In this document: positions 45-56,148 of the stretch, piece after piece
Position numbering within the stretch: position 1 is the stretch's first letter
Layout of the letters: every line of letters starts with the position of its first letter
Origin: Acidimicrobiia bacterium
Lineage (GTDB): Bacteria > Actinomycetota > Acidimicrobiia > IMCC26256 > DASPTH01
Direction of reading: 5' to 3'
DNA length: 64,000 nt
Assembly (NCBI GenBank): GCA_036502765.1
Contig: DASXXX010000031.1
Span: forward strand, 56,696-120,695
The notes under the pieces: generated by a model
The model's database searches: none
Told to the model about the DNA's origin: nothing
Seen by the model: the letters and a program-made list of their open reading frames with translations, nothing else
Program-made: the position numbers and the translations under genes

Positions 45-1292
45 TTGGGGGGATTCCCCGCCGTGCTCCCAGCAGTACGGTCGGTGTTCGTGTTGTCGAC
101 GGCCACCGCGCATCGCCTCTTCGGACCCTGCTCGCGATCGGGCGCGTTCCTGGACGTTGCGATCGCGATCGTCGCGCTTGCTGGGTCGCTGGCGCTGATC
201 TCCCACGGCGGCATTCCCGGCTCGGTTGCTCATGGCGGCGATCTCGACGCGCTCGGGATCCTGCTCGCAGCCTGCTCGACGCTTCCGGTCATCTTGTGGC
301 GCCGGTCTCCGATGGGTGTCTTCGTCGTGACCGCCGTGGCGAGCGTGCTCCTGGCGGGATTCGGCTATCGGGTCGGGGTGCCTCTCGGTCCTACGGCCGC
401 GCTCTACCTGCTGGCGGCGAGCCGCGACGACGAGAATCCCTGGACGCGGCGAATCACCTGCGCGGTCGTTGCGCTGTTCGTCGCCTACCTGGGCGCGGCT
501 GCCCTCGGCGACGGAGGCTTTCCCGGGACCGAGCTCTTGCACGCCGGCCTCGCGTGGGCGGTCGCCTGGTTCGCCGGCGAGCGAACCCGTCTGCGCCATG
601 AGCACATCGCCGAGTTGCGCGAGCGCGCGGTGCGTGCCGAGCGCGACGCGGCTCGGGAGGGCTTGCTTGCGGTTGCCGAGGAACGCGCCCGGATCGCCCG
701 CGACCTCCATGATTCGGCCGGACACGCGATCAATGTGATTGCCATCCGTGCCGGCGCGGCCCGTCTGCGCCACGAGCAGGAGCCCGATCGTTCGATCTTG
801 GCGCTGGAGGCGATCGAAGATCTCGCCCGACAGACTGCCGGAGAGATCGATCAGATCGTCGGCGCGCTGCGCGACCGCAGCTGTGAGAGCCGCGAAATGC
901 CAGCTCCTGCCGGGCTCGCGTCGCTACAGACGCTCGTCGGGCACCATGCTGGCGGTGGGCTCGATGTGACGGTCACGACCGCGGGGTCGCCGCGACAGCT
1001 CGGTGTTGCGGTCGACCTAGCTGCGTATCGGATCCTGCAGGAAGGACTGACGAACGCCGCCCGGCACGGGAAGGGTGCGGCGCGAGTCGAGTTGACGTTC
1101 GGCGACGCGGCGCTCGCCCTGACGATCACCAACCCCGTGCCGGATGGCGCGCTTGTCTCGACCAGCGGTGGGCACGGGGTGATCGGCATGTGTGAACGCG
1201 CGACCCTGCTCGGCGGCAGCCTCGACGCCGACCGCGTCAACGGTGCCTTTCGCGTCCGAGCCACGCTGCCCTACGCAGAGGATCTCTCGTGA
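45..1292 (+). CDS. Two-component sensor histidine kinase (HisKA_3 / NarL-partner type) with hydrophobic N-terminal half
   Basis: 415-aa ORF. It has an H-box ARDLHDSAGHAINVI, an N-box LQEGLTNAARHG and a G-box GGHGVIGMCERA. The stop overlaps the next gene start (GTGA at 1289-1292). The TTG start at 45 is uncertain. Confidence 0.85.
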   Translation: MGGFPAVLPAVRSVFVLSTATAHRLFGPCSRSGAFLDVAIAIVALAGSLALISHGGIPGSVAHGGDLDALGILLAACSTLPVILWRRSPMGVFVVTAVASVLLAGFGYRVGVPLGPTAALYLLAASRDDENPWTRRITCAVVALFVAYLGAAALGDGGFPGTELLHAGLAWAVAWFAGERTRLRHEHIAELRERAVRAERDAAREGLLAVAEERARIARDLHDSAGHAINVIAIRAGAARLRHEQEPDRSILALEAIEDLARQTAGEIDQIVGALRDRSCESREMPAPAGLASLQTLVGHHAGGGLDVTVTTAGSPRQLGVAVDLAAYRILQEGLTNAARHGKGAARVELTFGDAALALTITNPVPDGALVSTSGGHGVIGMCERATLLGGSLDADRVNGAFRVRATLPYAEDLS

Positions 1293-1965
1293 CGCGGGTT
1301 CTGATCGCCGACGACGACCATCTCATGCGCGCAGGGCTCATCGAGCTCCTCTCCGCCGACCCCTCGATCGAGATCATCGTGAAGCTTCGACCGGACGCGA
1401 AGCAGTGAAGAAAGCTCGGCGACTCGGCCCCGACGTCGTGCTCATGGACGTCCGGATGCCGGACCTCGATGGCATCACTGCAACACGCGAGCTGACGCAA
1501 TCCGCGCCCAGCGTACGAGTGCTGATCCTCACCACCTTCGAACAAGACGACTACATCTTCGGAGCGCTGCGCGCCGGCGCCTCCGGGTTCCTCCTCAAGC
1601 GAACCCGACCCGAGGACCTGATCGCGGCCGTCCACACCATCGCCGCCGGTGATTCCTTGCTCTCTCCCGCAGTCACCCGACGCGTCATCGACCGCATGGC
1701 CCAGCAACCCATTCCTGACCTCGCTCGTCAGGCCCGACTCGATCAGCTCACTGCACGCGAGGGAGAAGTCCTCGGACTCGTCGCGCGCGGCCTCTCGAAC
1801 CGCGAGATCGCTGCCACGCTCGTCGTCGAGGAGTCGACGATCAAGACCCACGTCAAGCGCATCCTGATGAAGCTCGGGCTCCGCGATCGCGTCCAGGTCG
1901 TGATCTTCGCCTACGAAACCGGCATGAACCAGCCTGTCGTCGTGACCCATCCGATCCCGCCCTGA
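1289..1965 (+). pseudogene. NarL/LuxR-family response regulator interrupted by a 1-nt frameshift near 1379-1381
   Basis: The receiver N-terminus VTRVLIADDDHLMRAGLIELLSADPSIEII is read from GTG 1289 and hits TGA at 1406-1408. The rest (EASTGREAVKKARRLGPDVVLMDVRMPDLDGI ... LuxR HTH LTAREGEVLGLVARGLSNREIA) continues in the frame of ORF 1192..1965. The junction ATCATC-GT-GAAGCT looks like a codon missing one base. Confidence 0.7.
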
Positions 1966-2183
1966 GCGCGCCCATCGTGGTTCGGCAGTGTCCGGCTGGC
2001 GTGCAGAGTGGTTCCGCCGATCGATCGTCTCGCGAGGTTTGCTTCCTGCCGGTCGGAGTGCGCCGTGGCCAAGTATCGAGATATCCGTACGGAGGAGTTG
2101 GATGGGCAACAACTCGGCGAGCGATGGGCAACCCCGCCGCTCGACCGGAAGAGTCCTCCAGCCTCTGACCGGCCGTTTCTCTG

Positions 2184-2255
2184 CGCCCCCGGAAGGATTC
2201 GAACCTCCGCGCACGGTTTAGGAAACCGATGCTCTATCCCCTGAGCTACGGGGGC
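2184..2255 (-). tRNA. tRNA-Arg (anticodon CCT)
   Basis: 72-nt cloverleaf on the minus strand. Acceptor stem GCCCCCG/CGGGGGC, D-arm GCTC-AGGGGATA-GAGC, anticodon loop TTCCTAA, T-arm GGAGG-TTCGAAT-CCTTC, discriminator G. CCA is not encoded. Confidence 0.9.
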
Positions 2256-2859: not shown

Positions 2860-2888
2860 TGTACAAGTATACATCTACAGTGCTACTG
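2860..2888. promoter_or_regulatory. AT-rich promoter/operator island upstream of the first substrate-binding-protein gene
   Basis: TGTACAAGTATACA (2860-2873, palindromic TGTAC..ATACA) is followed by the -10-like TACAGT (2876-2881). The 14-mer recurs 13/14 at 62124-62137. Confidence 0.4.
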
Positions 2889-2891
2889 ACT

Positions 2892-2916
2892 ACCCGGCCG
2901 CATTCGGCGGCCGGGT
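2892..2916 (+). promoter_or_regulatory. Perfect 10-bp stem / 5-nt loop hairpin in the putative 5' leader of the SBP gene
   Basis: ACCCGGCCGC-attcg-GCGGCCGGGT lies between the -10-like hexamer and the GGGGGAAG Shine-Dalgarno that precedes GTG 2937. Confidence 0.4.
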
Positions 2917-2936: not shown

Positions 2937-4223
2937 GTGACGGATCAGAGGGGTAGACGGTTGCGCGCGCGCTGGTGGATCGCGGTGGTGTCGGCCGTCG
3001 CGCTGGTTGGGGTGGTGTCGGGCGCGGCTGCGGCCCGAACTGCGCCGCATGCACAGGCAACGCCTGGGTTCGACGGTAAGACGATCAAGGTGGCGGGGCT
3101 CGGTTTCGCCGCGAGCTTCAACCCTGACGCCGAGGTAGGTGCGCAGGCGCGGTTCGCGAAGGCGAACGAGAGCAATGAGTTGAACGGCGTGAAGATCGAG
3201 TTCGCCGAGTTCGCCGACGACAAGTCGGACGCGGCGACCTCGGTCAACGAAGCGCGGCGTCTGGTCGAGCAGGAGGGTGTCTTCGCGATTGTGCCGATGA
3301 TGTCTTCAACTGCACCGGGCACGTACATGAACCAGAAGCAGGTGCCGTACTTCGGCTGGGGAATCGACACCAGCTACTGCGGTCCTGGCGACAAGCTCTA
3401 CGGGTTCGGTTTCGACGGCTGTGTCCTGCCACCGAACGCGAAGGCGGTGCCAGATTTCTCGGCGGGGACGACGTACAAGTACATGACCGAGACGTTGGCG
3501 ATCAAGAAGCCGACGATCGCGACCGTCGGGTACGACAGCGCGGGCGGGAAGACGTCGAATCAGTCCTTCATCGCGCAGGCGACCGGCAGCGGTTTGAAGG
3601 TGGTGTGGGCGAAGACCGCTCTCCCTGCTCCGCCCGCAGTCGTCGGTGACTACTCGCCGTTCGTCCAGCAGATCCTCGCGGCGAACGGGGGCAAGGGACC
3701 CGACGCCGTGTGGTTGCCGTTGTCGTTCAACGACGTGTTGAACATGGTCAAGGCGCTGCGCAGCGCGAACTACCAGGGCACCATCGTGACCGCGCTGTAC
3801 TCGGATGCGTTGCTCAAGCCGCTCGCAAACACGATCGCCGTCGCGCCAATCGCGCCCTTCGAGCAGCACTCGGCAGGGACCGACGCGATGGTCGCCACGA
3901 TCAAGGCGTACAAGGCCGATGCGAAGCCATCGACCGTGATGGCTGTGGGTTACCTGTCCGCTGATTTCTTCGTCAAGGCCGTGAAGAAGCTCGGCACGAA
4001 GAACCTCACTCGCCAGGCGTTGCAGAAGACGGCAGCACGCATGACCTACGGGATCCCGAACACGGTCGGGCCGACGCAGTTCCCCAGGGCGTTCCAGGCA
4101 CTGAACACGTACTGCGCGGCACTGGTGACGAACGCCGACGGTTCAGCCTGGTCGGTCGCCGAGCCGTACACGTGCACGAACAAGTTCAACAAGGTCAAAG
4201 GCACTGCCACCGAAGTTGGGTGA
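2937..4223 (+). CDS. ABC transporter substrate-binding protein, LivK/Peripla_BP_6 family (paralog 1)
   Basis: 428-aa ORF with an N-terminal signal-like segment RRLRARWWIAVVSAVALVGVVSGAAAA. It aligns full-length by eye to ORF 13062..14336, with most positions identical. Confidence 0.9.
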   Translation: MTDQRGRRLRARWWIAVVSAVALVGVVSGAAAARTAPHAQATPGFDGKTIKVAGLGFAASFNPDAEVGAQARFAKANESNELNGVKIEFAEFADDKSDAATSVNEARRLVEQEGVFAIVPMMSSTAPGTYMNQKQVPYFGWGIDTSYCGPGDKLYGFGFDGCVLPPNAKAVPDFSAGTTYKYMTETLAIKKPTIATVGYDSAGGKTSNQSFIAQATGSGLKVVWAKTALPAPPAVVGDYSPFVQQILAANGGKGPDAVWLPLSFNDVLNMVKALRSANYQGTIVTALYSDALLKPLANTIAVAPIAPFEQHSAGTDAMVATIKAYKADAKPSTVMAVGYLSADFFVKAVKKLGTKNLTRQALQKTAARMTYGIPNTVGPTQFPRAFQALNTYCAALVTNADGSAWSVAEPYTCTNKFNKVKGTATEVG

Positions 4224-5146: not shown

Positions 5147-5215
5147 CTCCAGACGAAACGTTGATACAGTCACTGTCTAGTTGCACAGCCTAGGGGTCCG
5201 TCAGAAGATGTCCGG

Positions 5216-9550: not shown

Positions 9551-10860
9551 TTCCCCCCGGTCATGACTGGTCCCATCCGCAGCTTCATGTCGCCGAACGT
9601 GATCGGTTTGCTGCCGGGCTTCGGGGCTCGTCCGGCTGCCACCTTCGGCGCGGAGAGGTCGCGGTCGCTGACCCGCTCGCGGAGCGCGCCGACCGTGCAC
9701 GCGTCGCGTCCGAGGCGGTCGACGGCGTCGTAGTGGAATCGCCGCGCGGCGTTCTGCCAACAGATGGCATCGACGTCCGCTTGGCTGCATCCTTCGAGCT
9801 GGGCGGCGAGCTGTTCTGCGGCGTCGGGCCAGGAGCTGTCGGAGTGGGGATAGTCCATCTCCCAACAGATCGTCCCGATCCCGATCTCGTCGCGGAGGCC
9901 GACACCGATGCGATCGCGGATGAAGCAGGCGAGGAAGTTGCGGCGGAACACGTCGGTGGGTGTGAGACCGTTGCCGAGGTCGTCGCCCGTCCAAGCCCGC
10001 TGCCGGGCATACGTGTCCTCGAGGCGTTCGAGCACGAAGGGAATCCAGCCGATGCCGCCCTCCGACATCGCGAACGTCAGCGTCGGGAATTCCTGGATCA
10101 CGCGGGAGAAGAGCAGGTCGGACGCGAACCGGACGGTGTCGATCGCGACGATCGCATTGAACGTCAGGTAGTTGGTCATGTCGGAGGGGACCGGTGCACC
10201 ACCCCCGGTGCCGATGTGGATGTTCACCACGGAGTCTTCGTCACTGCAGGCTGCCCACAGCGGATCCCAGTGAGGGTCCTGCCACGGTGGGCCGCCGTAC
10301 GTACCGATGTGCTGCGGCACGGTGATCGCTCGACAGCCGTTCGCGGCGAGGCGCCGGACTTCCGCCGCCGCGAGGTGCGGATCCCACAACGGCACGATGC
10401 CGAGTGGGATGAAGCGGTCGGGATACGCGCCACACCAGTCCTCGAGGTGCCAGTCGTTGTACGCCCGCACCATCACCTCTGAGACGTCGCGTTCGCCGTG
10501 CACCGTGAACATCGCTCCGGAGATGGTGGGGAACGAGGGGAAGCACAGCGAGGCGAGTACGCCGGCGACGTCCATGTCCTTGACCCGCTCGTGGATGTCG
10601 TAACAACCGGCCCGCATGTCGTCGAAACGTGTGGGTTCGAATCCCCATTCGTCATTCGGCCGGCCGGCCACGGCGTTGAGGCCGATGTTCGGAAGGCGCG
10701 CGCCCGCGTACTCCCAGGCGGAATCGCCGTTGTCGTCGACGATCACTCGGGGGGCTTGGTCGCGATAGCGCGCCGAGACCCTCCCCTCGAACATGTCGGG
10801 CGGTTCCACAGTGTGGTCGTCGATGCTGATCAGGACCAGATCGAGAGGTTCAATGCTCAT
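9547..10860 (-). CDS. Amidohydrolase-2 family metal-dependent hydrolase
   Basis: The N-terminus MSIEPLDLVLISIDDHTVEPPDMFEGRV matches this family's typical N-terminus. I chose ATG 10860 as the start; the upstream 28 codons of the ORF run into the AT-rich promoter island. Confidence 0.85.
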   Translation of the reverse strand: MSIEPLDLVLISIDDHTVEPPDMFEGRVSARYRDQAPRVIVDDNGDSAWEYAGARLPNIGLNAVAGRPNDEWGFEPTRFDDMRAGCYDIHERVKDMDVAGVLASLCFPSFPTISGAMFTVHGERDVSEVMVRAYNDWHLEDWCGAYPDRFIPLGIVPLWDPHLAAAEVRRLAANGCRAITVPQHIGTYGGPPWQDPHWDPLWAACSDEDSVVNIHIGTGGGAPVPSDMTNYLTFNAIVAIDTVRFASDLLFSRVIQEFPTLTFAMSEGGIGWIPFVLERLEDTYARQRAWTGDDLGNGLTPTDVFRRNFLACFIRDRIGVGLRDEIGIGTICWEMDYPHSDSSWPDAAEQLAAQLEGCSQADVDAICWQNAARRFHYDAVDRLGRDACTVGALRERVSDRDLSAPKVAAGRAPKPGSKPITFGDMKLRMGPVMTGGK

Positions 10861-10866
10861 GGATGC

Positions 10867-10898
10867 ACTGTAAGACAAACAATGTACAGAAGTACAGT
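10867..10898. promoter_or_regulatory. 32-bp AT-rich divergent promoter/operator element (copy 1)
   Basis: ACTGTAAGACAAACAATGTACAGAAGTACAGT is 27/32 identical to 32181-32212. The ends are reverse-complementary TAnnnT-like hexamers, and the internal palindrome is TGTAC-AGAA-GTACA. Confidence 0.55.
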
Positions 10899-10985
10899 CT
10901 CGGAGGGCGCGTCGCAGCACCTCGGAGCGGTGGTACGAAAGCACATGTCGTGTGTTAGCGTCCCGCCGCCGTCAGAGGCACGCTC

Positions 10986-11444
10986 GTGAATGGGGGAGCC
11001 ATGGGAACGAACCCGACCGGAGGGTCGTCGCAGGATCCAGTCGAGCTCCGGCCGCTGTGCCGCGCGACCTACGAGCTCGGCGCCACGGCAACGGTGTCGA
11101 ACGGCCCACTCGGAACCCGCCTGGTGAGCGAGATCGCAGCGGCACGGTTCGAAGGCGAACGGTTCCGCGCGTCTCTGGTCGGATCAGTGGCGGCCGACTG
11201 GGCCACCATCGAGCCGGACGGCAGGATCTGCATCGACGTCCGACTCACCCTGCAGACCGATGACGGTGCGGTTGTGCTCGTGACCTACCAGGGTCGCGGT
11301 GACGCCGCGACCGGGACGTCGTACTCCGCGCCGCTCTTCGAGACGGGCGACGAACGGTACGCGTGGTTGACGCGCATTCAAGCCGTGGGGAAGAGCACCT
11401 TCGACGGCGTCGAGCTGCACTTCGAGATGTTCGAACTGGTCTGA
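10986..11444 (+). CDS. DUF3237-family beta-barrel protein
   Basis: 152 aa. The segment GPLGTRLVSEIAAARFEGERFRASLVGSVAADWATIEPDGRICIDVRLTLQTDDGAVVLVTYQGR matches my recollection of the DUF3237 pattern. The exact start is uncertain (10986 or 11001). Confidence 0.7.
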   Translation: MNGGAMGTNPTGGSSQDPVELRPLCRATYELGATATVSNGPLGTRLVSEIAAARFEGERFRASLVGSVAADWATIEPDGRICIDVRLTLQTDDGAVVLVTYQGRGDAATGTSYSAPLFETGDERYAWLTRIQAVGKSTFDGVELHFEMFELV

Positions 11445-14418: not shown

Positions 14419-14495
14419 CATAGCCCGATCCCGTGGGTATGACCGGTCGCGTCAGGTCCCCACGAGGTGGTGGCATTAAGACATCAGGCGTTCTA

Positions 14496-15710
14496 ATGTC
14501 TCCCGGCATGGAGACGCTCGCGGAACGATTCGACGAACCCGCCTTCTACCTGCGTGATCCCCACGCCACCTACCGCCGGCTCCGGGCCGAGGACCCCGTG
14601 CACTGGTACGACGAGGGCCAGTTCTGGGTCATCACCAAGTACGACGACATCAAGTACATCTCGACGCATCCGTTGTTGTTCTCGTCGAAGGACATCGCGA
14701 TCATCTCGGGCCTCGTCGACCGACGTCACGGCGTTCCGAAGACCCCGATGCAGGAAAGTCCGGCCGTGATGTTCATGGACCCACCGGAACACGGTCCGTA
14801 CCGCAAGGTGGTCAGCCACCGCTTCACGCCGAAGGAAGTGGGCGCGCTCGACGATCACGTGCGCACGGTGATCCGTGAACTCGTGCAGGGGCTCCCGGAC
14901 GGCAAGTTCGACCTGGTCGAGCAGGTGGCAGAGCCGGTGCCGGTGTTCGTGTTCTCGAAGTTGCTCGGCATCCCCGCGAGCGAATGGCACCAGGTCGTGG
15001 AGTGGGCGACCATCATCACGAATCTGGGCTCGGGGCAGGGCACCCAAGACGACATGGATCTCGTCATGAACGTGGTCGGGCCGTACCTGTGGCAGCTGAC
15101 GATGGACCGGCGCGCCGATCCGACCGACGACCTGTTGTCCCTGCTGACGCAGGCAGAGTTCGACGGCCGGCCCCTCAACGAGGGGGAGATCATCGGATAC
15201 GCGACGACCCTCCTGGCGGCCGGAAGCGAGACGACCCAGAGCCTCATCGGCGGCTTGGGTCACGTCCTCACCCACTTCCCGGAGCAGGCCGACGAGTTCT
15301 TCGCCGATCCCAGCCTCTCGCTGGCGATGGTGGAGGAGACCATGCGTTGGTGGACGCCGGTGATGAGCATGGCCCGCGAAGCGACCGCGGACGTTGCCCT
15401 CCGCGACAAGGTGATCCGCAAGGGTGACGGTGTGCTCCTCCTCTACTCGGCTGCCAATCGCGACGAGGAACGCTGGGGCGACGACGCGGAAGAGTTCGTC
15501 CTTCGGCGCCCGGACGCGTCAGGCCAACTCGGCTTCGGCATCGGGGAGCACTTCTGCATGGGCGCGCACCTCGCCCGACGCGAAGCCCGCATCCTCCTGG
15601 AAGAGTTCGCGGCGCGGGGTCGACGACTCGACCCGGTCGGCGAAGGAGAGCTGCGATCGTCGACGTTGATCCACACCTACGACCGGCTGCCAGTCGAACT
15701 GGTGCGCTGA
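14496..15710 (+). CDS. Cytochrome P450
   Basis: Heme-ligand motif FGIGEHFCMGAHLAR and I-helix LLAAGSETT. I chose ATG 14496 as the start because upstream codons have low GC3 and because similarity to the paralog begins at ..SP(G/D). Confidence 0.9.
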   Translation: MSPGMETLAERFDEPAFYLRDPHATYRRLRAEDPVHWYDEGQFWVITKYDDIKYISTHPLLFSSKDIAIISGLVDRRHGVPKTPMQESPAVMFMDPPEHGPYRKVVSHRFTPKEVGALDDHVRTVIRELVQGLPDGKFDLVEQVAEPVPVFVFSKLLGIPASEWHQVVEWATIITNLGSGQGTQDDMDLVMNVVGPYLWQLTMDRRADPTDDLLSLLTQAEFDGRPLNEGEIIGYATTLLAAGSETTQSLIGGLGHVLTHFPEQADEFFADPSLSLAMVEETMRWWTPVMSMAREATADVALRDKVIRKGDGVLLLYSAANRDEERWGDDAEEFVLRRPDASGQLGFGIGEHFCMGAHLARREARILLEEFAARGRRLDPVGEGELRSSTLIHTYDRLPVELVR

Positions 15711-17393: not shown

Positions 17394-18605
17394 TCAGGTC
17401 AGGCGCACCGGAAGTCGATTGAACGTGGCGACGATCGTCGAATCGCGTCGCTCGACCGGTCCCGTGAGCTCGATGCCGGACGCTCGCCGTGCGAGTTCCT
17501 CGATGAGGATGCGGACCTCGCGTCGTGCCAGGTGCGCACCCAGGCAGAAGTGCTCGGCGAACCCGAACGCGAGGTGACGAGTGATCGACGGCCGGTCGAT
17601 GTTCCACTGATCGGCGTCATCACCCCACTCCTCCTCGTCCCGATTGCCGGATCCGTACGCGAGGAGCACCGCCTCACCGCTGCGAATGGTCTTGCCGCGC
17701 AACTCGACGTCTTCCTTCGCCTGGCGCGCCATGCTCACAACTGGCGTCCACCACCGCAGGGTCTCCTCGACTGCGGCAGCCGCGAGGCTGGGGTCGGCGA
17801 GAATGCGCTGCGCCTGATCGGGGTGCTGCGTCAATGCCCACACGAGCCCGGCGATGAGACTCTGAGTGGTCTCGCTCCCCGCGGCGAGCAGCGCGATCGC
17901 CCACCACACGACCTCGATGGGCGTGAGGGGCCGCCCGTACACCGTCGCTTCCGCGATGAGGGTGAGGAAGTCGTGGTCGGGTACTGCTCGGCGCTGCTCG
18001 AGGAGGTCCTCGAGGTAGGGAACGACCTCGGCGTACACCGCGGCCATGGTCTCCTGGGTCTCGGTGCCTCCACCTGATGCAGTGATCAGCGTTGCCCAGT
18101 GCAAGATCCGGCGCCAGTCCTTGCGCGGGACACCCAGCAGATTGGCGAACACGTTGACGGGGATGGGCTCGGCGAGGAGTTCGACGGCATCGAAGTTGCC
18201 GGCGGGGAGCGAATCGAGGGTCTCGCGGATCACGTCGCGCACCGGACCGTCGATCTCGTTGACGCGTGCAGGAGTGAGCTCCCGATTCAGCACCTTGCGG
18301 TGCTCGAGATGGTCGGGCGGATCCAGCAACATCAAAGATGTCCGCGGAGGACGCTCCATGCCTTCGCGGATCTTGATGATGTCACCCAGGATCGCGATCT
18401 CCGACGAAGGGAACAGCTCCGGGTGCTTCGAGACGAAGCGGATGTCCTCGTACTTCGTGATCACCCAGAACGGCCCGTCCTCGTACCAGTGCACCGGATC
18501 GTGCTGCCGGAGGTACGCGAATTGCTCGTTCGGAGCGTCGACGTAGAACTCGGCGCGGTCGTAGCGCGCCACCACCTCATCAGGTGAGACCGGTGTTGTG
18601 GGCAC
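17394..18605 (-). CDS. Cytochrome P450 (paralog of 14496..15710)
   Basis: FGFAEHFCLGAHLAR and LLAAGSETT. The N-terminal YDRAEFYVDAPNEQFAYLRQHDPVHWYEDGPFWVITKYEDI parallels the paralog. The start is set to GTG 18605, preceded by GGGGGA; alternatives are 18584 and 18581. Confidence 0.85.
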   Translation of the reverse strand: MPTTPVSPDEVVARYDRAEFYVDAPNEQFAYLRQHDPVHWYEDGPFWVITKYEDIRFVSKHPELFPSSEIAILGDIIKIREGMERPPRTSLMLLDPPDHLEHRKVLNRELTPARVNEIDGPVRDVIRETLDSLPAGNFDAVELLAEPIPVNVFANLLGVPRKDWRRILHWATLITASGGGTETQETMAAVYAEVVPYLEDLLEQRRAVPDHDFLTLIAEATVYGRPLTPIEVVWWAIALLAAGSETTQSLIAGLVWALTQHPDQAQRILADPSLAAAAVEETLRWWTPVVSMARQAKEDVELRGKTIRSGEAVLLAYGSGNRDEEEWGDDADQWNIDRPSITRHLAFGFAEHFCLGAHLARREVRILIEELARRASGIELTGPVERRDSTIVATFNRLPVRLT

Positions 18606-18768
18606 GGGATCCCCCGGGATCGTCGCCGCATGGACGGTAACACAGCAAGTGCACAGTCGTATTGCCCCCACCGTGGTCCGAGGGCTCTCATCTGATTGCC
18701 GGCGTTCCCCGAGGACGACCGTCCACGACGCTACGGTGACGACCGGCCGACGGCATGGGACGGAAGTG

Positions 18769-19392
18769 ATGGCGGCACGAGGATCAGTGGACGAAGACTC
18801 GACCCGCACGCGGATCCTCGATGCGGCGCTGCAGTGCTTCAAACAGCTGGGCATCGAGAAGACGAGCCTGCTCGACGTTGCCCGCACGGCCGATCTCTCA
18901 CGAGGAACCGTGTACCGGTACTTCTCCGATCGGCAAGCGCTCATCGACGCCACGGTGATCCACAACAGCGAGAACGACTACGCCGAGGCTCTGACCGTGA
19001 TGAGCTCCTACCCGACACTGGTCGAACAGGTCGGTGCGTTCGGTGAGGTCTTCGCCCGGAACATCGGCAACTACCGCCGGAACTGGTTGGTCAACGACGA
19101 CCGTGAGCTCCAACGCCTGATCGCCTCTGACCGTGAGGGCGGCCTGCGCCGGATGTCGGACTTCCTCGCACCGTACGTGGAGGCGAGCAAGCAGCGCGGA
19201 GAGATCAGCCCAGAGATCGACGCGGAGGAAGCGGGCGAATGGATCGCCCGGATGTTCATGTCGTTGACCCTCATGCCGGGCTCATCCGCGTTCGATGCCC
19301 GCAAGCCGAAGACGTTCCGTGTGTTCCTGGAGCACTACGTGGTCGACGGCCTCGCCCCGCCCCGCAAGCGGGCAAAACGCGCCAAGCGCTAG
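18769..19392 (+). CDS. TetR-family transcriptional regulator (paralog 1)
   Basis: HTH region TRILDAALQCFKQLGIEKTSLLDVARTADLSRGTVYRYFSDRQALI. It is divergent from the P450 at 18605 and collinear with the TetR at 56198. Confidence 0.9.
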   Translation: MAARGSVDEDSTRTRILDAALQCFKQLGIEKTSLLDVARTADLSRGTVYRYFSDRQALIDATVIHNSENDYAEALTVMSSYPTLVEQVGAFGEVFARNIGNYRRNWLVNDDRELQRLIASDREGGLRRMSDFLAPYVEASKQRGEISPEIDAEEAGEWIARMFMSLTLMPGSSAFDARKPKTFRVFLEHYVVDGLAPPRKRAKRAKR

Positions 19393-25937: not shown

Positions 25938-26710
25938 TCGTGGGATCAGCTGCTCGGGTCACGCTCGTCACCGGGGCGGGATCCGGCATGGGGCGCGCCC
26001 TGTGTGAACGGCTGGCGGCGCGAGGCGAGGCAGTCGTGGCTGTCGACATCGACGGTGCGAAGCTCGCGTGGACCGACGGATGGGCGGCGGTCGTCCCCCA
26101 CACCGCAGACGTCACCCATGAGGATGACAACGACGCGATGGTCGCGTTCGCGGTCGACCAGTTCGGTGGTCTCGACGCCGCCGCGCTGAACGCCGGGATC
26201 GATGTCGTCGGGACGGTCGACCAGCTGCCGATGGAGCGGTTCGATCGCGTGCTCGACGTCAATCTCCGCGGCGTGGTGCTGGGCATCCGATCGGTCATCC
26301 CGGCCCTGCGGGCCCGCGCCGGCGGTTCGATCGTGGTGACGTCGTCGATGGGTGGGTTGGTGGGGCAGGTCGGTCGGTCCGCGTACGGCGTCGCGAAGGC
26401 CGGCCTCGTGAACCTGGTGAAGACCGTTTCGCTCGAAGTCGGCCACGAGCGGATCAGGATCAACGCGGTGTGCCCGGGACCCATCCGCGACACGGACATG
26501 AGCGCGGGGTTCGACGTCCGCCATCCTGACCTGTACCGCGAGTTCGCCAACCGCACTGCACTCAAGCGCTTCGGCAGCGCCGAAGAGGTCGCAGCGGTCA
26601 TGGACTTCTTGCTGTCGCGCGCCGCGTCCTATGTCACCGGAGCCGCGGTCCCCGTCGACGGCGGAACGACTGCGGGTGCGGCATTGGATCAACCGCTGGG
26701 CAACCTCTGA
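25934..26710 (+). CDS. Short-chain dehydrogenase/reductase (SDR)
   Basis: VTLVTGAGSGMGRALC and YGVAKAGL. GTG 25934 overlaps the upstream stop. The 3' end overlaps the convergent ABC fusion gene by 22 bp. Confidence 0.85.
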   Translation: MIVGSAARVTLVTGAGSGMGRALCERLAARGEAVVAVDIDGAKLAWTDGWAAVVPHTADVTHEDDNDAMVAFAVDQFGGLDAAALNAGIDVVGTVDQLPMERFDRVLDVNLRGVVLGIRSVIPALRARAGGSIVVTSSMGGLVGQVGRSAYGVAKAGLVNLVKTVSLEVGHERIRINAVCPGPIRDTDMSAGFDVRHPDLYREFANRTALKRFGSAEEVAAVMDFLLSRAASYVTGAAVPVDGGTTAGAALDQPLGNL

Positions 26711-29634
26711 GCGGTCGGCGCCGCGGCACCGAGGTACGCGGCGGTCAGCTGGTGCAGGTCGGCCTCGGCCCGAGGCCCGCACCACACGATCCTGCCGAGC
26801 TCCATGTAGGCGATCACGTCCGCGATCTCCAGCGCGTTGCGCGCGTGTTCTTCGACGAGGAGCACGGCACATCCCCGATCCCGCAACTCCTCGATCGCTC
26901 GCATCACGACATCGGCGGCGAGTGGCGCGAGGCCGAGAGTCGGTTCGTCGGCGATGAGGACGTGAGGAGGATCGGCGAGGGCGGGGGCGAGGCTCAGCAT
27001 CTGCTGTTCGCCACCGGAGAGAAGCCCGGCGGTCTGCTTCCGCCGTTCCCGCAGGATGGGGAACCGATCGAAGGCGAGCTCCCGGAGGGCAGGATCCCGG
27101 AGGAGCACGGTGAGGTTGTCCTCGACGGTGAGCCCCGGGAAGATGCCCCGTGCCTCCGGCACGAGTTGCACCCCGAGCTTGCGGGCGCGGTCGAAGGGCA
27201 TCATCTTCGTGATGTCGTCGCCGTCGACGACCACCTTCCCGGTCTGGGCGTCCACGAGCCCGCTGGCAACCGCACAGAACGTCGACTTCCCGGCTCCGTT
27301 GGCTCCCAAGAGCGCAACGATCGTGCCGGGCGCGATCCCGAGCGTCACACCGTGGAGCACTTCGACGTCTCCGTAACCTGCGACCACACGCTCGAGGGAC
27401 AGCGCCGCGCCATCGAGGGTCGCCGCGCCGGTGGGGTCCGCGGGCCCAGGTCGGCCGCTCGTGTGCTGCTGTTCGTGTTCGGGGACCTCGCCTCCGTGCA
27501 CCTCGGCCTCGATGCGCTCGATGGCTGCTTCGCGCTCCTTCTTTCGGCGCTTGGCGAGGCGTTGTTGGCCGGAGAGCGCCAAGATCCCGTCGGGTTCCTG
27601 GGCGAGGTTGATCGCTCCGAGGCCGGACAGGATCGCCACGAAGTAGATGGAGTTCATGAGGTCGGTGACCGAGCCCTGCGGGAGGATGTCGGTCGCGAGC
27701 CAGTGGAAGATCGCGGGCGAGCACGCCAGCGCGAAGCCGGCGAGCAGCGCGCCGCCGGGTCGACGGATCCCGAAGGTGACGGCAAGGGACAGCCAGAAGA
27801 GCGTGACGTAGGGGCCGGCGCTCTTGTCGGTGAAGATGAACGTCTGCATGCCGAGGAACGCTCCGGCGAAGCCGGCGAGCGCGCCCGAGAACGCGAAGAG
27901 CAGGATCTTCGATCGTCCCGAGCGGATGCCGGTCGCCTCCGCGGCGACTTCCGAGCTGCGAACCGCGTACGTCGCCCGACCGGACGGCGAGCGCATGAGT
28001 GAGTGGATCAGGAGCGTGGCGACGCCGAAGATCACCAACATCACCAGGATCTGGTCTTCGACGCGCGCGAGGTCGATGATCGGTTGGGGACCCTTCACGA
28101 GCAGGTCGTTGATCCAGTTCAAGCCCGGGATGTCGATGGTGGGGGTGCGGATGGCCCAGCCGCTCGAGTCGTTGTTGAATCCGTTCTGGCTGAAGATCAA
28201 CACGTCCGCGGAGAACGCGAGCGCGAGCGTGCCGATCGCGAGGCTCGCTCCGCTCAGGCGCCGCACCGGGATTGCGACCAACGCGCCCGTGGCCGCGGCG
28301 ACGATCGCGCCGAGGAGCGCGGCGAGCAGGAAGTTGAGTTGGCCGTGGGTGGCCACCAACGGCAGGTCGAAGCCCCAGTCGTAATTCAGGGCCCAGCCCG
28401 CGGTCAGTCCACCGGCGGTGACGAAGGTCGCCTGCGCGAGGCTCACCATGCCGCCCATGCCGGTGATGACCACGAACGACAGAAAGATCAGCCCCATGGT
28501 CAAGCCGAGGACGATGAGTCCCTGCTCGTAGGAGTCGGCCTGCAGTGCGGGAACGTTGATCCAGTCGAGTGAGAACGCCACGAGGCAGATCGTCGCGATC
28601 ACCCATGGCAGCCGGCGCCGCCACGGCGGGAGCCCGGTGCGGTGGTCGGGGCGGGGAACGTCGTCGGCGACCGACCCGGCCTGCCGGTCGCGCTTGCGCG
28701 ACGAGACCCAGAAGAGCAACAAGAGCAGGGTGATGACGTACGGCACGGACGAGCGGAGACCGCTGAGGTTGGCCAGGAAGTCGGGAAGCACCTCGGTGCT
28801 GTAACCGGCGACGAGGTTGGCGACGATGCCGAGGAGGAGCCCGCCGACGAGGGCGATCGGGATCGAGCGGAGCCGCGCCAGCGCGACGGCGGCCAGCGAC
28901 CCGAGCACGATGAAGGTGATCGTCGTCTCGTCGAGTGAAAACAGCGGAGCGATCAGCACGCCACCGAGTCCGGCGAGGATCATCGTGAGGATCCACGCGA
29001 CCGCGGAGCTGCGTGCGGCATTGACGCCACGGAGCTGGGCCAACTGCTCGCGGTCGACGACGGCGCGCATCTCGAGGCCGATGCGGGTGCGCCGGAGCAC
29101 GAACCAGAGGAGGATCGCGGCGACGACTGCGCAGATCAGCACCGCGAGCTGGTCGGTGTTCAACGCGATGTGGTCGCTGATCCTGATGGTCTTCGCCGGC
29201 GATGGGCCGATCCCGGGGGGTTGGACGTTGCCCTGGTCTGCCTTGTTCGTGGGCAATCCGAGATCGAAGAGCCCGTTGCCCACCGCCTCGACGAGCCAGT
29301 TCGTGAGACTCGGCAGTGCCACCAGGAGACCGATCGTGCCGACGATCCGCGCGTAGACGGGAGCGTGTGCAAGTCGACGGAGCAGGATCCGGTCGAGGAA
29401 CAACCCGAGCAGGGGAGCGAAGACGAACACCGAGATGATGAGCGAGGGCACGATCGGGATTCCCTGGCCGACGTGCAGTTGGTAATAGAGGTACGCGACG
29501 GTGAACGCGACCGCGCCGTGCGCGAAGTTGAAGATGCCCGACGTCTGGTAGGTGAGGACGAGCCCTGCCGCCATGATGGCGTAGATCGAGCCGGTGACCG
29601 CGCCTGAGATGACGATGTCGATCAGCTTGTTCAT
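26689..29634 (-). CDS. ABC transporter triple fusion: LivH-like permease + LivM-like permease + LivF-like ATPase
   Basis: 981 aa read from ATG 29634 (AGAGGA upstream). LivH-like part: N-terminal MNKLIDIVISGAVTGSIYAIMAAGLVLTYQTSGIFNFAHGA. LivM-like part: central ITGMGGMVSLAQATFVTAGGL. LivF-like part: C-terminal VAGYGDVEVLHGVTLGIAPGTIVALLGANGAGKST ... LSGGEQQMLSLA ... LIADEPTLGLAP. Confidence 0.85.
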   Translation of the reverse strand: MNKLIDIVISGAVTGSIYAIMAAGLVLTYQTSGIFNFAHGAVAFTVAYLYYQLHVGQGIPIVPSLIISVFVFAPLLGLFLDRILLRRLAHAPVYARIVGTIGLLVALPSLTNWLVEAVGNGLFDLGLPTNKADQGNVQPPGIGPSPAKTIRISDHIALNTDQLAVLICAVVAAILLWFVLRRTRIGLEMRAVVDREQLAQLRGVNAARSSAVAWILTMILAGLGGVLIAPLFSLDETTITFIVLGSLAAVALARLRSIPIALVGGLLLGIVANLVAGYSTEVLPDFLANLSGLRSSVPYVITLLLLLFWVSSRKRDRQAGSVADDVPRPDHRTGLPPWRRRLPWVIATICLVAFSLDWINVPALQADSYEQGLIVLGLTMGLIFLSFVVITGMGGMVSLAQATFVTAGGLTAGWALNYDWGFDLPLVATHGQLNFLLAALLGAIVAAATGALVAIPVRRLSGASLAIGTLALAFSADVLIFSQNGFNNDSSGWAIRTPTIDIPGLNWINDLLVKGPQPIIDLARVEDQILVMLVIFGVATLLIHSLMRSPSGRATYAVRSSEVAAEATGIRSGRSKILLFAFSGALAGFAGAFLGMQTFIFTDKSAGPYVTLFWLSLAVTFGIRRPGGALLAGFALACSPAIFHWLATDILPQGSVTDLMNSIYFVAILSGLGAINLAQEPDGILALSGQQRLAKRRKKEREAAIERIEAEVHGGEVPEHEQQHTSGRPGPADPTGAATLDGAALSLERVVAGYGDVEVLHGVTLGIAPGTIVALLGANGAGKSTFCAVASGLVDAQTGKVVVDGDDITKMMPFDRARKLGVQLVPEARGIFPGLTVEDNLTVLLRDPALRELAFDRFPILRERRKQTAGLLSGGEQQMLSLAPALADPPHVLIADEPTLGLAPLAADVVMRAIEELRDRGCAVLLVEEHARNALEIADVIAYMELGRIVWCGPRAEADLHQLTAAYLGAAAPTAQRLPSG

Positions 29635-29755
29635 GCGTCCTCTGCGTGCTCGAACCGCTGTCGACCGCGACAGCCGGTGCCTTCGCGTTCCGTGGTCATG
29701 GCCCCCCAGCGCATCGACGCAGGTGTTCGCAATCATGTCGCGACGAGGCGCAACA

Positions 29756-29783
29756 TGTCAACAAACAATGCTCAATTGTACAG
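29756..29783. promoter_or_regulatory. AT-rich island upstream of the ABC fusion gene
   Basis: On the minus strand it reads CTGTACAATTGAGCATTGTTTGTTGACA. It contains a TTGACA hexamer (29761-29756) and shares the 10-mer ACAAACAATG (29761-29770) with 10875-10884. Confidence 0.35.
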
Positions 29784-30881: not shown

Positions 30882-32115
30882 GGGGAAGTCCGAGGAGCTT
30901 TTCGCCGATCACGTTGCGCTGGATCTCGGAGGTGCCTGCGCCGAGTGTTGCGGCCCGCATCAGCAGGTAGCTCTTGGCGACGTTGCCTCCCTTGGCGGCT
31001 CCGTCGGAACCCCGTTGCAGCGTGCCGCTGACGCCTGCCATCTCCAGCCCGAAGTTGGCCATCGCCTGGTCCACCTCGGACGTCAGCAGCTTCGCGACCG
31101 AGGCTTCGGGTCCCGGAGCCGTGCCGCGAACGCCGGCGGCGGTTGCCTGCGCTGATATCTGGCGCAACGCCTCGACTTGCGCGGCGAATCGCACGAGGTG
31201 GTCGAGCGTCCACGGGTCGTCCATCGGGCAACTCCCGTCGGCTGCCGGGTCGGTTGCCGGCTCGGTTGCCATGGCGAGGAGGATCGCGAGTCGTCGTTCG
31301 ATCCGGTGCGTCCGACTCTGGCCGACGCGTTCGTATCCGAGCGTCGAGTTCGCGACCCGCCATCCCGCATCCACCGGACCGACGACGTTGGCGAGTGGCA
31401 CACGGACGTCGGTGAAGAACACCTCGTTGAACTCGGCGGTTCCGGTGATCTGGCGGATGGGGCGGATCTCGATGCCCGGTGTGCGGAGGTCGACGAGGAG
31501 GAAGCTGATGCCTTCGTGCTTGGGCGCGTCCGGATTCGTGCGGGCGAGGATGTAGATCCAGTCCGCGTACTGCGCCTTCGACGTCCAGATCTTCTGCCCG
31601 TTCACGAGGAAGTGGTCGTCGACGAGCTCCGCGCGGGTGCGCAGCGATGCGAGGTCACTCCCGGCGTCCGGCTCGCTGAACCCCTGGCACCAGACGTCAG
31701 CAGCGTTCAGGATCCGAGGGAGGTAATGCGCACGTTGCGTGTCGTCGCCCCACTGGATGATGGTCGGACCGAGCTGGTTGACGGCGCTGCGGTTGATCGC
31801 ATCCGGTGCGCGGTGGCGAGCAAGCTCCGCATTGAACACCAGCTGTTGCACGACCGTCGCGCCTCTCCCTCCGTGGACGACCGGCCAGCTCACCGCCGCG
31901 AGTCCCGCCGCATGGAGACGCCTCTGCCACTCGCGCAGCAACGCGACACGCTTGGCTTCGGATCGCTCCCGACTCGCGCTGACCAGCTCCGATGTCAGCT
32001 CGGTCTCGAGGAACGCGAGCACCTCGTTCCGAAACTCGCGGTCTTCCGGCGCGAGAGGAACGCCGAAGTCGTCGACGTCGCGACGGGACCCACCGGCGCG
32101 AGATCCGACCGTCAC
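30871..32115 (-). CDS. Acyl-CoA dehydrogenase, alpha-like subunit
   Basis: QGFSEPDAGSDLASLRTRAE, FLVNGQKIWTSKA, LGYERVG and C-terminal GAGTSEIQRNVIGEKLLGLPRD. Confidence 0.9.
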   Translation of the reverse strand: MTVGSRAGGSRRDVDDFGVPLAPEDREFRNEVLAFLETELTSELVSASRERSEAKRVALLREWQRRLHAAGLAAVSWPVVHGGRGATVVQQLVFNAELARHRAPDAINRSAVNQLGPTIIQWGDDTQRAHYLPRILNAADVWCQGFSEPDAGSDLASLRTRAELVDDHFLVNGQKIWTSKAQYADWIYILARTNPDAPKHEGISFLLVDLRTPGIEIRPIRQITGTAEFNEVFFTDVRVPLANVVGPVDAGWRVANSTLGYERVGQSRTHRIERRLAILLAMATEPATDPAADGSCPMDDPWTLDHLVRFAAQVEALRQISAQATAAGVRGTAPGPEASVAKLLTSEVDQAMANFGLEMAGVSGTLQRGSDGAAKGGNVAKSYLLMRAATLGAGTSEIQRNVIGEKLLGLPRDR

Positions 32116-32180
32116 GTTCCTTCCGACGACGTGCTCGTGCTTTCGAGCGCCACGTCGGAAGGGTCGGGAGCCATGGCGGT

Positions 32181-32212
32181 ACTGTATGACATCTCATGTA
32201 CAGAAGTACAGT
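32181..32212. promoter_or_regulatory. 32-bp AT-rich divergent promoter/operator element (copy 2)
   Basis: ACTGTATGACATCTCATGTACAGAAGTACAGT is 27/32 identical to 10867-10898. It contains the 12-mer TATGACATCTCA, which is also present as its reverse complement at 62146-62157. Confidence 0.55.
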
Positions 32213-32242
32213 GCGGTGGCGCCAAGCGAATGCTGCGGAGGA

Positions 32243-33133
32243 ATGCTCGTGGCCGACCAGGACGAGTTCGAGATCGACGAAGACTGGGTGCTCTACGACG
32301 TCGTCGCGCCACACATCGCTCGCATCACGATCAACCGGCCCGAACGTCGGAATGCGATCCTCTCGCCGGACATGCACGGGTTGTTCGAGGATCGCCTGCG
32401 CCGAGCCGAGAACGACGACGACATCAAGGTCGTCCTCCTCACGGGCGCCGGATCCGACTTCTGCGCCGGCGACGACGTGCGTCGCCTCCCCGTCGAGCGA
32501 GCCGGCCTCGAGAGGGGCTCGAAACTGCCCCAGACCGCCAGGATCGCCAACGCCCGGCGTCTCCACCGCCACCTGACCAACTGGCTGGAGTTTCCCAAGA
32601 CCGTGATCGCCGTCTGCCAGGGCACGACGCTCGGGGCCGGCTTCAACCTCGTGCTCGCTGCGGACCTCGTCATCACGGCAGAAGGAGCCACCTTCGGCCG
32701 CCCGCAGGCGCGGATCGGCTTCGCCGGCTTCAGCACCGCGATGCCGCTCGTCCTGTTGAAGCTGGGTCCGAACCGCGGGTACGAAGCGATGATCACCGGT
32801 CGACGCATCACGGCCGAAGAGATGCGGGACTGGGGCGTCGTCTCATCGATCGTTCCGGCCGCCGACCTCGAAGCAGAAGCGATGCGCTACGCGCAGGCGA
32901 TCGCTCACCATTCCGCCGACGGGCTGATGATCGGGAAGCAGGCGCTCATCACCTTCTGGCACGGCGTCGGCATGGCCGAGTTCGGCGACTGGGTGCAGAT
33001 GGCGCACCCGCTGTTCACGAACCTCGTCTGGCGCGATGACGAGTTCAACTTCTTCAAGGAACGGGGCGAGCGTGGCGCCAAGGGCGCGCTCACCGAGTTG
33101 CAGCGCCGCTATGCGGAGTGGGGCTTCGAGTAG
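32243..33133 (+). CDS. Enoyl-CoA hydratase/isomerase (crotonase fold)
   Basis: ARITINRPERRNAI ... VVLLTGAGSDFCAGDD. ATG 32243 directly follows GGAGGA, so the start is uncertain by a few codons. Confidence 0.85.
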   Translation: MLVADQDEFEIDEDWVLYDVVAPHIARITINRPERRNAILSPDMHGLFEDRLRRAENDDDIKVVLLTGAGSDFCAGDDVRRLPVERAGLERGSKLPQTARIANARRLHRHLTNWLEFPKTVIAVCQGTTLGAGFNLVLAADLVITAEGATFGRPQARIGFAGFSTAMPLVLLKLGPNRGYEAMITGRRITAEEMRDWGVVSSIVPAADLEAEAMRYAQAIAHHSADGLMIGKQALITFWHGVGMAEFGDWVQMAHPLFTNLVWRDDEFNFFKERGERGAKGALTELQRRYAEWGFE

Positions 33134-33167
33134 CGGCGGCGCCGCGACCTCATCTGTGATACACAAC

Positions 33168-33184
33168 AGAACACATAGTGTTCT
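33168..33184. promoter_or_regulatory. Perfect 7-3-7 inverted repeat, candidate TetR-type operator
   Basis: AGAACAC-ATA-GTGTTCT lies in an AT-rich patch 28 nt upstream of ATG 33212. The same GAAC-N7-GTTC architecture occurs at 56134-56148 and 57286-57300. Confidence 0.5.
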
Positions 33185-33211
33185 ACTGATTCAACGAGGG
33201 AGCACTGCGAC

Positions 33212-43795: not shown

Positions 43796-43809
43796 GCTGA
43801 CCTCCGTCG

Positions 43810-43846
43810 GTACAAATGATCAATGGTTGTTCTATCATGCAGGTAC
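43810..43846. promoter_or_regulatory. AT-rich island between divergent SDR and hydratase genes
   Basis: GTACAAATGATCAATGGTTGTTCTATCATGCAGGTAC contains the inverted repeat ATGAT...ATCAT and a TATCAT hexamer (43833-43838). Confidence 0.3.
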
Positions 43847-52803: not shown

Positions 52804-52819
52804 GCCGAGGGCGGAACGA

Positions 52820-52847
52820 TAGAACAAGTATTGATACAGTGTTACTG
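52820..52847. promoter_or_regulatory. AT-rich island with an extended -10-like TGATACAGT
   Basis: TAGAACAAGTATTGATACAGTGTTACTG lies in the 84-nt gap before ATG 52888. It shares ACAAGTAT with 2863-2870 and TGATACAGT with 5162-5170. Confidence 0.4.
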
Positions 52848-56109: not shown

Positions 56110-56133
56110 CGCCGGCGCCCGTGCTGGTCACAG

Positions 56134-56148
56134 GAACGTGCCCTGTTC
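56134..56148. promoter_or_regulatory. GAAC-N7-GTTC inverted repeat upstream of the second TetR gene
   Basis: GAACGTGCCCTGTTC ends 5 nt before a TAACAT hexamer (56154-56159), 50 nt upstream of ATG 56198. Confidence 0.45.

Follow-up and report, generated by a model that had tools for sequence, protein, structure and literature searches.

Several short AT-rich words recur between the genes of a 64,000-nucleotide stretch of the Acidimicrobiia contig DASXXX010000031.1 (hereafter the window; G+C content 67%). Judging from the sequence, these shared words are pieces of one promoter-operator module of ~33 bp, which is reused before most operons of a large catabolic gene island of lipid-degradation type. 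The core of the module is a 14-bp palindrome, TGWWC-N4-GWWCA, with TGTAC-N4-GTACA as its strongest form. A second element, usually with a TAnnnT hexamer (TACAGT, TACTGA, or TATCAT), follows 19 bp from the palindrome (start to start). An earlier, sequence-only reading had placed the transporter genes and several enzyme operons under one control logic, and this idea held up: the module is found in 12-14 promoter islands, including those of a substrate-binding protein (SBP1), a fused ATP-binding cassette (ABC) importer, an amidohydrolase, the acyl-CoA dehydrogenase and enoyl-CoA hydratase genes, and a P450/VOC gene pair, it is enriched over composition-matched nulls, and it is conserved in orthologues. 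We consider it probable that the module is a shared operator read by the TetR paralogues of the island, which would repress transport and enzyme operons together.

The Recurring Words and the Module That They Mark

All copies of the words lie inside intergenic AT-rich islands, as had been claimed. Exact matches were found for TGTACAAGTATACA at 2860-2873 and TGTACAAGCATACA at 62124-62137, for the 12-mer TATGACATCTCA at 32185-32196 (plus strand) and 62146-62157 (minus strand), and for the 10-mer ACAAACAATG at 10875-10884 and 29761-29770. The word TAWGACAWC was present as described at 14477, 32185, and 62149-62157 (minus strand), whereas the copy reported at 10871 reads TAAGACAAA and has one mismatch. 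The four words are, however, not separate motifs, as which they had been listed, but fragments of the recurring module. TGTACAAGYATACA is the operator palindrome itself (designated O1). In modules B and E, ACAAACAATG runs, in reverse complement, from the end of O1 across the spacer TTGTT into the start of the second element. TATGACATCTCA and TAWGACAWC likewise read in reverse complement; they cover the spacer and the TGTCW-TA edge of the -10 region of modules B and C, a sequence that is shifted by 8 bp in module D.

Sites B and C are perfect copies of the palindrome TGTAC-N4-GTACA, and sites A and D deviate from it at one position each. Site A (2860-2873, plus strand) is located upstream of the SBP1 gene (2937-4223, Peripla_BP_6) and matches 9/10 consensus positions. 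Read towards the gene, module A is TGTAC AAGT ATACA / TCTAC / AGTGC TACT GACTA, and its second element (2879-2892, plus strand) holds the -10-like hexamer TACTGA, the presumed -10 box. The hexamer TACAGT at 2876-2881 was dropped as the -10 box of SBP1; the orthologues favour TACTGA or TACTGT in the second element. Site B (TGTACAGAAGTACA, 10883-10896) lies between the divergent genes for the amidohydrolase (minus strand, ATG at 10860) and a DUF3237 protein (plus strand, 10986). Module B reads TGTAC TTCT GTACA / TTGTT / TGTCT TACA GTGCA; its second element (10864-10877, minus strand) holds the presumed -10 box TACAGT, and its reverse complement contains the TAAGACA word. Actinobacterial promoters have a -10 box of the form TANNNT, and leaderless mRNAs are frequent in this phylum. 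As the TACAGT box is only 6 nt from the amidohydrolase ATG, the transcript is presumably leaderless. A weaker extra site (GGTAC GAAA GCACA, 10932-10945, plus strand) is proximal to the DUF3237 gene, and the orthologous position reads TGTTCTGTCGTACA in the related loci L001 and L031.

Site C (32197-32210), which again reads TGTACAGAAGTACA, separates the acyl-CoA dehydrogenase operon (minus strand) from an enoyl-CoA hydratase gene (plus strand, ATG at 32243). Module C is TGTAC TTCT GTACA / TGAGA / TGTCA TACA GTACC, with TACAGT as the presumed -10 box in the second element (32178-32191, minus strand); the copy of TATGACATCTCA at 32185-32196 is the reverse complement of the spacer and the left part of this element. 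Site D (62124-62137, plus strand) is located between the genes for a P450 (60817-62082, minus strand) and a VOC protein (62200-62655, plus strand, Glyoxalase_4), and reads the same in the near-identical contigs L081 and L082. Module D reads TGTAC AAGC ATACA / CTCAC / TGTTG AGAT GTCAT. Its downstream part (TGTTG AGAT GTCAT A, 62143-62157, plus strand) holds TGAGATGTCATA, a copy of the spacer and -10 flank of site C, in a register unlike that of module C; the position of the -10 box reads TAGAGG, a poor match, and the function of this part is uncertain. Site E (TGCTCAATTGTACA, 29769-29782, minus strand) lies 33-46 nt upstream of the start codon (29736) of the permease-permease-ATPase fusion gene (26689-29736). 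Module E is TGTAC AATT GAGCA / TTGTT / TGTTG ACAT GTTGC; the palindrome matches 9/10 consensus positions and holds the -10-like TACAAT, and ACAAACAATG overlaps its edge. The gene labels of the earlier reading (substrate-binding protein, P450, VOC, ABC fusion) were borne out by Pfam.

The words had been called unlikely to recur by chance. This holds for their aggregate sharing, which exceeds that in shuffled islands, but not for a single 9-mer or 10-mer taken alone. Shuffling of the whole window gave 0.00, 0.00, 0.03, and 0.21 expected matches for the four words, a null that is too lenient because AT-rich words occur only in a few AT-rich islands. When the islands themselves were shuffled (200 shuffles), exact words of at least 10 nt were expected in 0.415 island pairs, with a maximum of 4, compared with the 6 pairs observed. 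The longest match in this null averaged 9.3 nt and reached 13 nt; the 17-mer common to 10882 and 32196 is beyond it, and the 12-mer is borderline.

A Gibbs sampler (width 14, both strands, no palindrome constraint) run on 14 intergenic AT-rich islands converged on TGTWC-N4-GTRCA with one site per island in 14/14 islands, a motif that is palindromic though no such constraint had been imposed. Its information content of 14.05 bits drops to 12.9 bits when the paralogous site C is left out; islands shuffled in 20-nt blocks give 9.93 ± 0.27 bits (maximum 10.5). The consensus TGWWC-N4-GWWCA is matched at 9 or more of 10 positions in 7/12 islands (0.18 expected, 0/5000 shuffles), a count that is somewhat circular, as the consensus was partly derived from the same sites; the de novo Gibbs run and the orthologue data are free of this circularity. 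Scored with a position weight matrix (PWM) built without it, site E reaches 17.1 bits, with a null maximum of 16.7 bits (50 local shuffles). The score for a partner site is highest at an offset of +19, both in the window and in related loci and loci around TetR genes; control loci lack such a peak. Motif discovery on the intergenic islands against shuffled islands, a check proposed in the sequence-only reading, thus returned one enriched motif. In the comparison of orthologous loci, likewise proposed there, the core proved conserved, so that neither the lack of conservation nor the lack of enrichment that this reading had named against itself was found.

Conservation of the Module in Related Genomes

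The loci closest to that of the amidohydrolase belong to metagenome-assembled genomes (MAGs) of "uncultured Actinomycetes" (92-95% identity), followed by those of Mycobacterium species (69-74%); in addition, a contig from a JGI metagenome is near-identical to the window (99.97% identity). Five promoters share the 16-nt block ACTGTACTTCTGTACA without change: those at sites B and C and their counterparts in L001, L031, and L003. In the amidohydrolase promoters the 5-nt spacer and the outer flanks vary around this block, and the -10 box keeps the TAnnnT form, with TACAGT conserved and TAAGGT in L031. The orthologue of site A (L170:342) reads TGTACAACAGAACA followed by GTGCTACTGTCTA, at an equal distance to the start codon and within unrelated flanks, upstream of a gene for a binding protein 80% identical to SBP1. 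The second element of module A is likewise conserved, as CGTGCTACTGTCTA in L170 and CGTGCTATTGCCTA in L171:6244, and the counterpart of site A in L172 reads AGAACAACAGTACA.

In Mycobacterium, the promoter region that separates the orthologous enoyl-CoA hydratase gene from the SRPBCC-amidohydrolase operon keeps RGTACAYAAGTACA in at least 10 loci. The mycobacterial enoyl-CoA hydratase promoter, equivalent to site C, carries (C/G)AGTACA(T/C)AAGTACA, and other mycobacterial promoters of the same gene set contain TGAACAATAGAACA or TGTTCAATTGTTCA. PWM matches of at least 13 bits are present in nearly all of the related loci L001-L031, compared with only 3 in the control loci L032-L080 (0.9 Mb from Acidimicrobiia and others).

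TetR Paralogues as Candidate Regulators

Two TetR genes are encoded in the window. TetR1 (18769-19392, plus strand), the candidate cognate repressor, matches PF00440 (the TetR_N helix-turn-helix domain) at 1.4e-13 on the open reading frame (ORF) 18598-19392. TetR2 (56198-56815, plus strand), a paralogous candidate repressor, matches the same domain at 3e-14; on the near-identical contig its gene call starts at 56234. The two proteins are 57% identical, with almost identical recognition helices, and among the 60 PDB matches listed for TetR1 all are TetR-family proteins. NCBIfam assigned neither the TetR proteins nor the enzymes to an equivalog, all matches being below the cut-offs. By homology searches, the family falls into three paralogue types, namely TetR1, TetR2, and a third type. 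Operator-bearing sister MAG contigs carry these paralogues as well, with all three on the L001 contig, and TetR2 and the third type on the L003 contig.

The module adjoins these genes in other genomes. The divergent region between the P450 and TetR1 genes of three independent orthologue loci contains the double site TGTACGGTAGCACA-GCACT-TGTACAGTCGTAC (also given as TGTACGGTAGCACA-GCACT-TGTACAGTCGTA), in which the two sites match 9/10 positions each and are 19 bp apart. This double site is identical in L164:9860-9892, L166:2862-2894, and L167:1418-1450, and the surrounding sequence differs. Homologues of TetR2, found in metagenomic clusters of the same gene content, are directly followed by TGTTCAACTGAACA-N5-TGTACTAnTGTTC modules, and the third paralogue has ATACA-N5-TGTAC modules upstream. 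In these loci, matches of at least 9/10 positions are 6.8 times as dense in the ~300 nt next to the TetR genes as in the remainder. Since modules adjoin the paralogue genes and the sister contigs carry both, the TetR paralogues are the best candidates for the protein that binds the palindrome. The right half-site differs by neighbour, being GTACA at TetR1, GAACA at TetR2, and ATACA or GTACA at the third type, which suggests as a working hypothesis that the paralogues divide the sites between them by the right half-site. A search for a TetR gene as reader beside the Mycobacterium amidohydrolase loci revealed none that is conserved there. The TetR genes next to P450 genes in L015 and L004 were set aside, each having an unrelated palindrome of its own.

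The operator is short and palindromic (within the range of ~14-16 bp), as suits a dimer. We propose that dimers of TetR1 and TetR2, and of the third paralogue in the sister genomes, would bind the palindrome, which lies over the presumed -35/spacer region of one promoter; such binding is predicted to block RNA polymerase. At the divergent promoters B and C, the palindrome would also cover the TACAGT -10 box of the opposite promoter. A pathway intermediate, plausibly an acyl-CoA thioester, would release the repressor and thereby switch on transport and enzyme operons together; KstR, KstR2, and FadR-type TetR proteins provide the analogy for such a ligand. TetR-type repression is proposed because of the placement of the palindrome over the promoter. 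It extends from approximately -23 to -36 relative to the presumed transcription start of the amidohydrolase gene, a placement that would fit repression by occlusion but not class II activation, for which sites centre on -41.5. With the left half of O1 ~18 nt from the -10 box, promoter and operator signals are superimposed.

A more specific scheme can be put forward only tentatively, and we give it somewhat less than an even chance. Here, the three TetR paralogues would share the grammar TGWWC-N4-GWWCA at 19 bp from the -10 box, and the half-site variants GTACA, GAACA, and ATACA would divide ~15 promoters of an island of at least 65 kb among them. This would constitute a KstR-like but unrelated regulon for a lipid or alicyclic substrate, conserved from uncultured actinobacterial MAGs to environmental Mycobacterium species.

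The motif marks the operons that are probably switched together in this P450/CoA-transferase/β-oxidation island, including three binding-protein genes and the unusual fused ABC importer. The ligand of the nominated repressors would reveal the substrate of the pathway, and the extent of the same regulon in related MAGs and environmental mycobacteria can be traced with the consensus. The proposed regulon is of an ordinary bacterial type, here in an uncultured actinobacterium, and involves no new regulatory principle.

Alternative Explanations

Besides the circularity of the consensus count, several observations weigh against repression of a shared operator by the TetR paralogues. The module in the divergent region between the P450_b and TetR1 genes of the window (AATAC GACT GTGCA CTTGC TGTGT TACC GTCCA, 18631-18663, minus strand) is degenerate, with 7/10 matches per half and three half-site substitutions, which may weaken the autoregulation of TetR1 in this strain. 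No good site is present immediately upstream of TetR2 in the window, and in the motif-bearing Mycobacterium loci there is no homologue of TetR1 or TetR2 within 10 kb. The 6.8-fold enrichment of matches beside the TetR genes is uncorrected for the high AT content of intergenic sequence. As a palindrome the second element is weak (6-8/10), and it may be just the -10 region, and some of the conservation could reflect a promoter signal rather than an operator. In the regions 10820-10990 and 32110-32250, an E. coli-type scan for sigma-70 promoters (TTGACA-N16-18-TATAAT) found none; the actinobacterial-style TAnnnT box is the sole promoter feature visible by eye. Sites B and C, moreover, are paralogous copies of one promoter and not independent: their similarity does not end with the promoter but extends for another ~70 nt, reaching into a 20-codon ORF at site C, and their 17-mer identity is inherited because one promoter was duplicated. 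The informative part of this pair is the 16-nt core, which is still identical while the rest has diverged.

The degenerate copy at TetR1, the want of a clear site upstream of TetR2, and the Mycobacterium loci without nearby homologues would all be accounted for if the palindrome were a real operator read by another regulator, encoded outside the window or acting as a global lipid regulator of the lineage, with the TetR paralogues controlling only their neighbouring genes. Site A also fits the PadR-type pattern ATGT-N8-ACAT exactly. Yet modules lie directly beside all three types of TetR paralogue in at least 10 independent loci, and no other transcription factor recurs in these clusters; the sensor kinase/LuxR pair at the edge of the window is missing from the related ones. 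We therefore regard another regulator as unlikely, though it is the strongest competitor of the TetR paralogues. It is less likely still that the module is mainly the signature of a promoter recognised by a particular sigma factor, without any repressor, the left half of O1 serving as a -35-like element ~18 nt upstream of TAnnnT. The module always points to the downstream gene with the -10 box inside the second element, and the offset of 19 bp is near the -35/-10 spacing, as a promoter would require. However, the best conserved part is the right half, GTACA, which would lie in the spacer, where sigma factors contact few bases, and the dyad symmetry and 5-4-5 geometry suit a dimeric helix-turn-helix protein. 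O1 itself contains the -10 box at site E and, on the plus strand, at sites B and C, and the failure to call any sigma-70-type promoter likewise speaks against a pure promoter signal.

The demonstrable paralogy of sites B and C, with homology running ~70 nt into an amidohydrolase remnant, and the many paralogous enzymes and three paralogous binding-protein genes of the cluster would also agree with words that are mere relics of promoters duplicated and rearranged along with their genes, with no common regulation today. What sites A, D, and E have in common with B and C is, however, the 14-bp core alone and not the flanks, and the core is invariant across genomes in which flanking and coding sequences have diverged by 20-30%, so that we consider relics of this kind very improbable. 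Least credible of all is a chance resemblance among AT-rich intergenic sequences. It could be argued from the fact that 9-10-mers are not individually significant under the island null, where the longest match had a mean of 9.3 nt and reached 13 nt, but the aggregate statistics are far outside this null and the sites are conserved in orthologues. Binding sites of the SOS box, CRP/FNR, or PadR type and a GTAC restriction-modification motif were set aside informally; the surrounding genes are catabolic, the dyad is kept as a whole, and the half-sites of an SOS box face the other way.

Relation to Known Regulatory Systems

The mycobacterial TetR repressor KstR (Rv3574) controls a large lipid regulon through the 14-bp palindrome TnnAACnnGTTnnA (PMC1995591). 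The proposed system resembles it in that a TetR-family repressor would act through a 14-bp palindrome found in many promoters and overlapping them, in multi-operon catabolism of lipid or steroid type, and in Actinobacteria. In contrast to the GAAC-N2-GTTC operator of KstR, the present sites conform to TGWWC-N4-GWWCA, and one operator grammar appears to serve three paralogous regulators. Membership in the KstR regulon was rejected, as spacing and half-sites differ and KstR is not among the 60 PDB matches listed for TetR1.

AcnR, a TetR repressor of Corynebacterium and Mycobacterium, binds the operator CAGNACnnncGTACTG (PMC2723105, citing Krug et al. 2005). The sites share with it the 6-4-6 inverted-repeat geometry, the GTAC core, and the N4 spacer, and the mycobacterial variants CAGTACATAAGTACAG match its left half. 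AcnR has the aconitase gene as its single target, and the outer bases of the two operators differ (CA/TG vs CT/AG). An AcnR operator was ruled out: the outer bases differ in the sites of the window, no aconitase gene is nearby, and AcnR is not among the TetR1 relatives listed.

The arrangement of TetR1 divergent from its putative target P450_b, with palindromic sites in the shared intergenic region (L164, L166, and L167), follows the classical TetR-tetA layout and the genome-context rule for TetR regulators (PMC3511530). It differs in that the operator is also found at many distant promoters, as in a regulon, and in that the autoregulatory copy of the window is degenerate. Mce3R, a double TetR protein with a non-palindromic operator (PMC11667970), was excluded, since no double-TetR protein is encoded in the window and the operator type differs. 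A literature search on TGTACA-type TetR operators, including the motif text of a survey of mycobacterial TetR proteins, yielded nothing usable.

Further Sites and Gene Context

Additional modules precede other genes of the island. Those at 33160, 43809, and 52813 are GAACA-type versions. The first (TACAC AACA GAACA CATAG TGTTC TACT GATTC, 33160-33192, plus strand) is located upstream of a short-chain dehydrogenase gene (33212), and the corresponding intergenic position reads ATGTTCAGTCGAACAT in L003 and CAGAACAGAAGTACAC in Mycobacterium loci. The second, an enoyl-CoA hydratase module (GGTAC AAAT GATCA ATGGT TGTTC TATC ATGCA, 43809-43841, plus strand), matches 9/10 and 8/10 positions and contains the -10-like TATCAT. 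The third (GGAAC GATA GAACA AGTAT TGATA CAGT GTTAC, 52813-52845, plus strand) lies upstream of the enoyl-CoA hydratase gene (52888) of the TetR2 operon, and its orthologue at L163:577 reads GGAACGATAGAACA. A weak module (7/10 and 7/10) was found by the Gibbs sampler before the short-chain dehydrogenase gene at 5216 (GAAAC GTTG ATACA GTCAC TGTCT AGTT GCACA, 5155-5187, plus strand), and a probable one with a weak match and less regular internal spacing before a GFO/MocA oxidoreductase gene (59786-59818, minus strand; gene start 59738).

The TAWGACAWC copy at 14477 was rejected as part of a module. It belongs to a different inverted repeat, AGACA-N13-TGTCT (14477-14501, plus strand), which surrounds the presumed -10 box TAATGT of P450_a (ATG at 14508). 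This repeat, also conserved in L164, departs from TGWWC-N4-GWWCA and is a candidate operator in its own right. The P450-adjacent TetR gene of Mycobacterium sp. HNNTM2301 is accompanied by a long palindrome, CAGCCTGAGAATT-N9-AATTCTCAGGCT (L015:17576-17650). Upstream of TetR2-type genes (56110-56233 in the window, and L102-L114) we observed the conserved pattern GGAAC(A)C-N~13-GTCGCGTAGCAT, which reads CAGGAACGTGCCCTGTTCTGGCGTAACAT in the window and could be their own promoter or an autoregulatory site.

According to Pfam, the window is a dense catabolic island, which is longer than 64 kb. It comprises five family III CoA-transferases, four acyl-CoA ligases, paired acyl-CoA dehydrogenases, several enoyl-CoA hydratases, a MaoC hydratase, and five or six P450s, together with short-chain dehydrogenases, three thiolases (two of them paired with a ChsH2-type DUF35 protein), a luciferase-like monooxygenase, and an aldehyde dehydrogenase. 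Transport is represented by three LivK-type substrate-binding proteins and the Liv-type permease-permease-ATPase fusion. Besides the two TetR paralogues, the only transcription factors found there are the sensor kinase/LuxR-type regulator pair (3-1965); this pair lies at the left edge, beyond a tRNA-Arg(CCT) gene (2183-2255, minus strand), and is not present in related clusters. In the LuxR-type ORF (1192-1965, plus strand) the receiver-domain profile matches only from position 26 and the first ~60 residues look out of frame, which suggests a frameshift or a wrong start. The ~900 nt around the tRNA gene (1966-2860) show no coding signal, and this region may mark the island boundary. Rfam at gathering thresholds matched only the tRNA, and no terminator-like sites were found in 10820-10990 or 32110-32250. 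The coding gaps hold a cupin-like ORF, a SnoaL-like ORF, and the non-coding tRNA stretch, and no small unannotated regulator genes were detected in them.

The 20-codon ORF at site C (MAPDPSDVALESTSTSSEGT, 32112-32174, minus strand) is leaderless, starting 6 nt after the TACAGT box, and its stop codon and the GTG with which the acyl-CoA dehydrogenase gene starts overlap (GTGA). DNA alignment with a 4-nt gap identifies it as a frameshifted remnant of an amidohydrolase 5′-end, and in L003 and the Mycobacterium loci an amidohydrolase gene is still located at this position. Beyond the end of the window, the intergenic region between the genes for SBP3 and the luciferase-like monooxygenase (L081:11838-12056, corresponding to 64037-64255) contains two modules, one beginning with TAAACGATAGAACA and the other reading AGAACGATGGTACA-TTTGC-TGTTTAGTTGCACT; the putative regulon therefore runs on past the window end.

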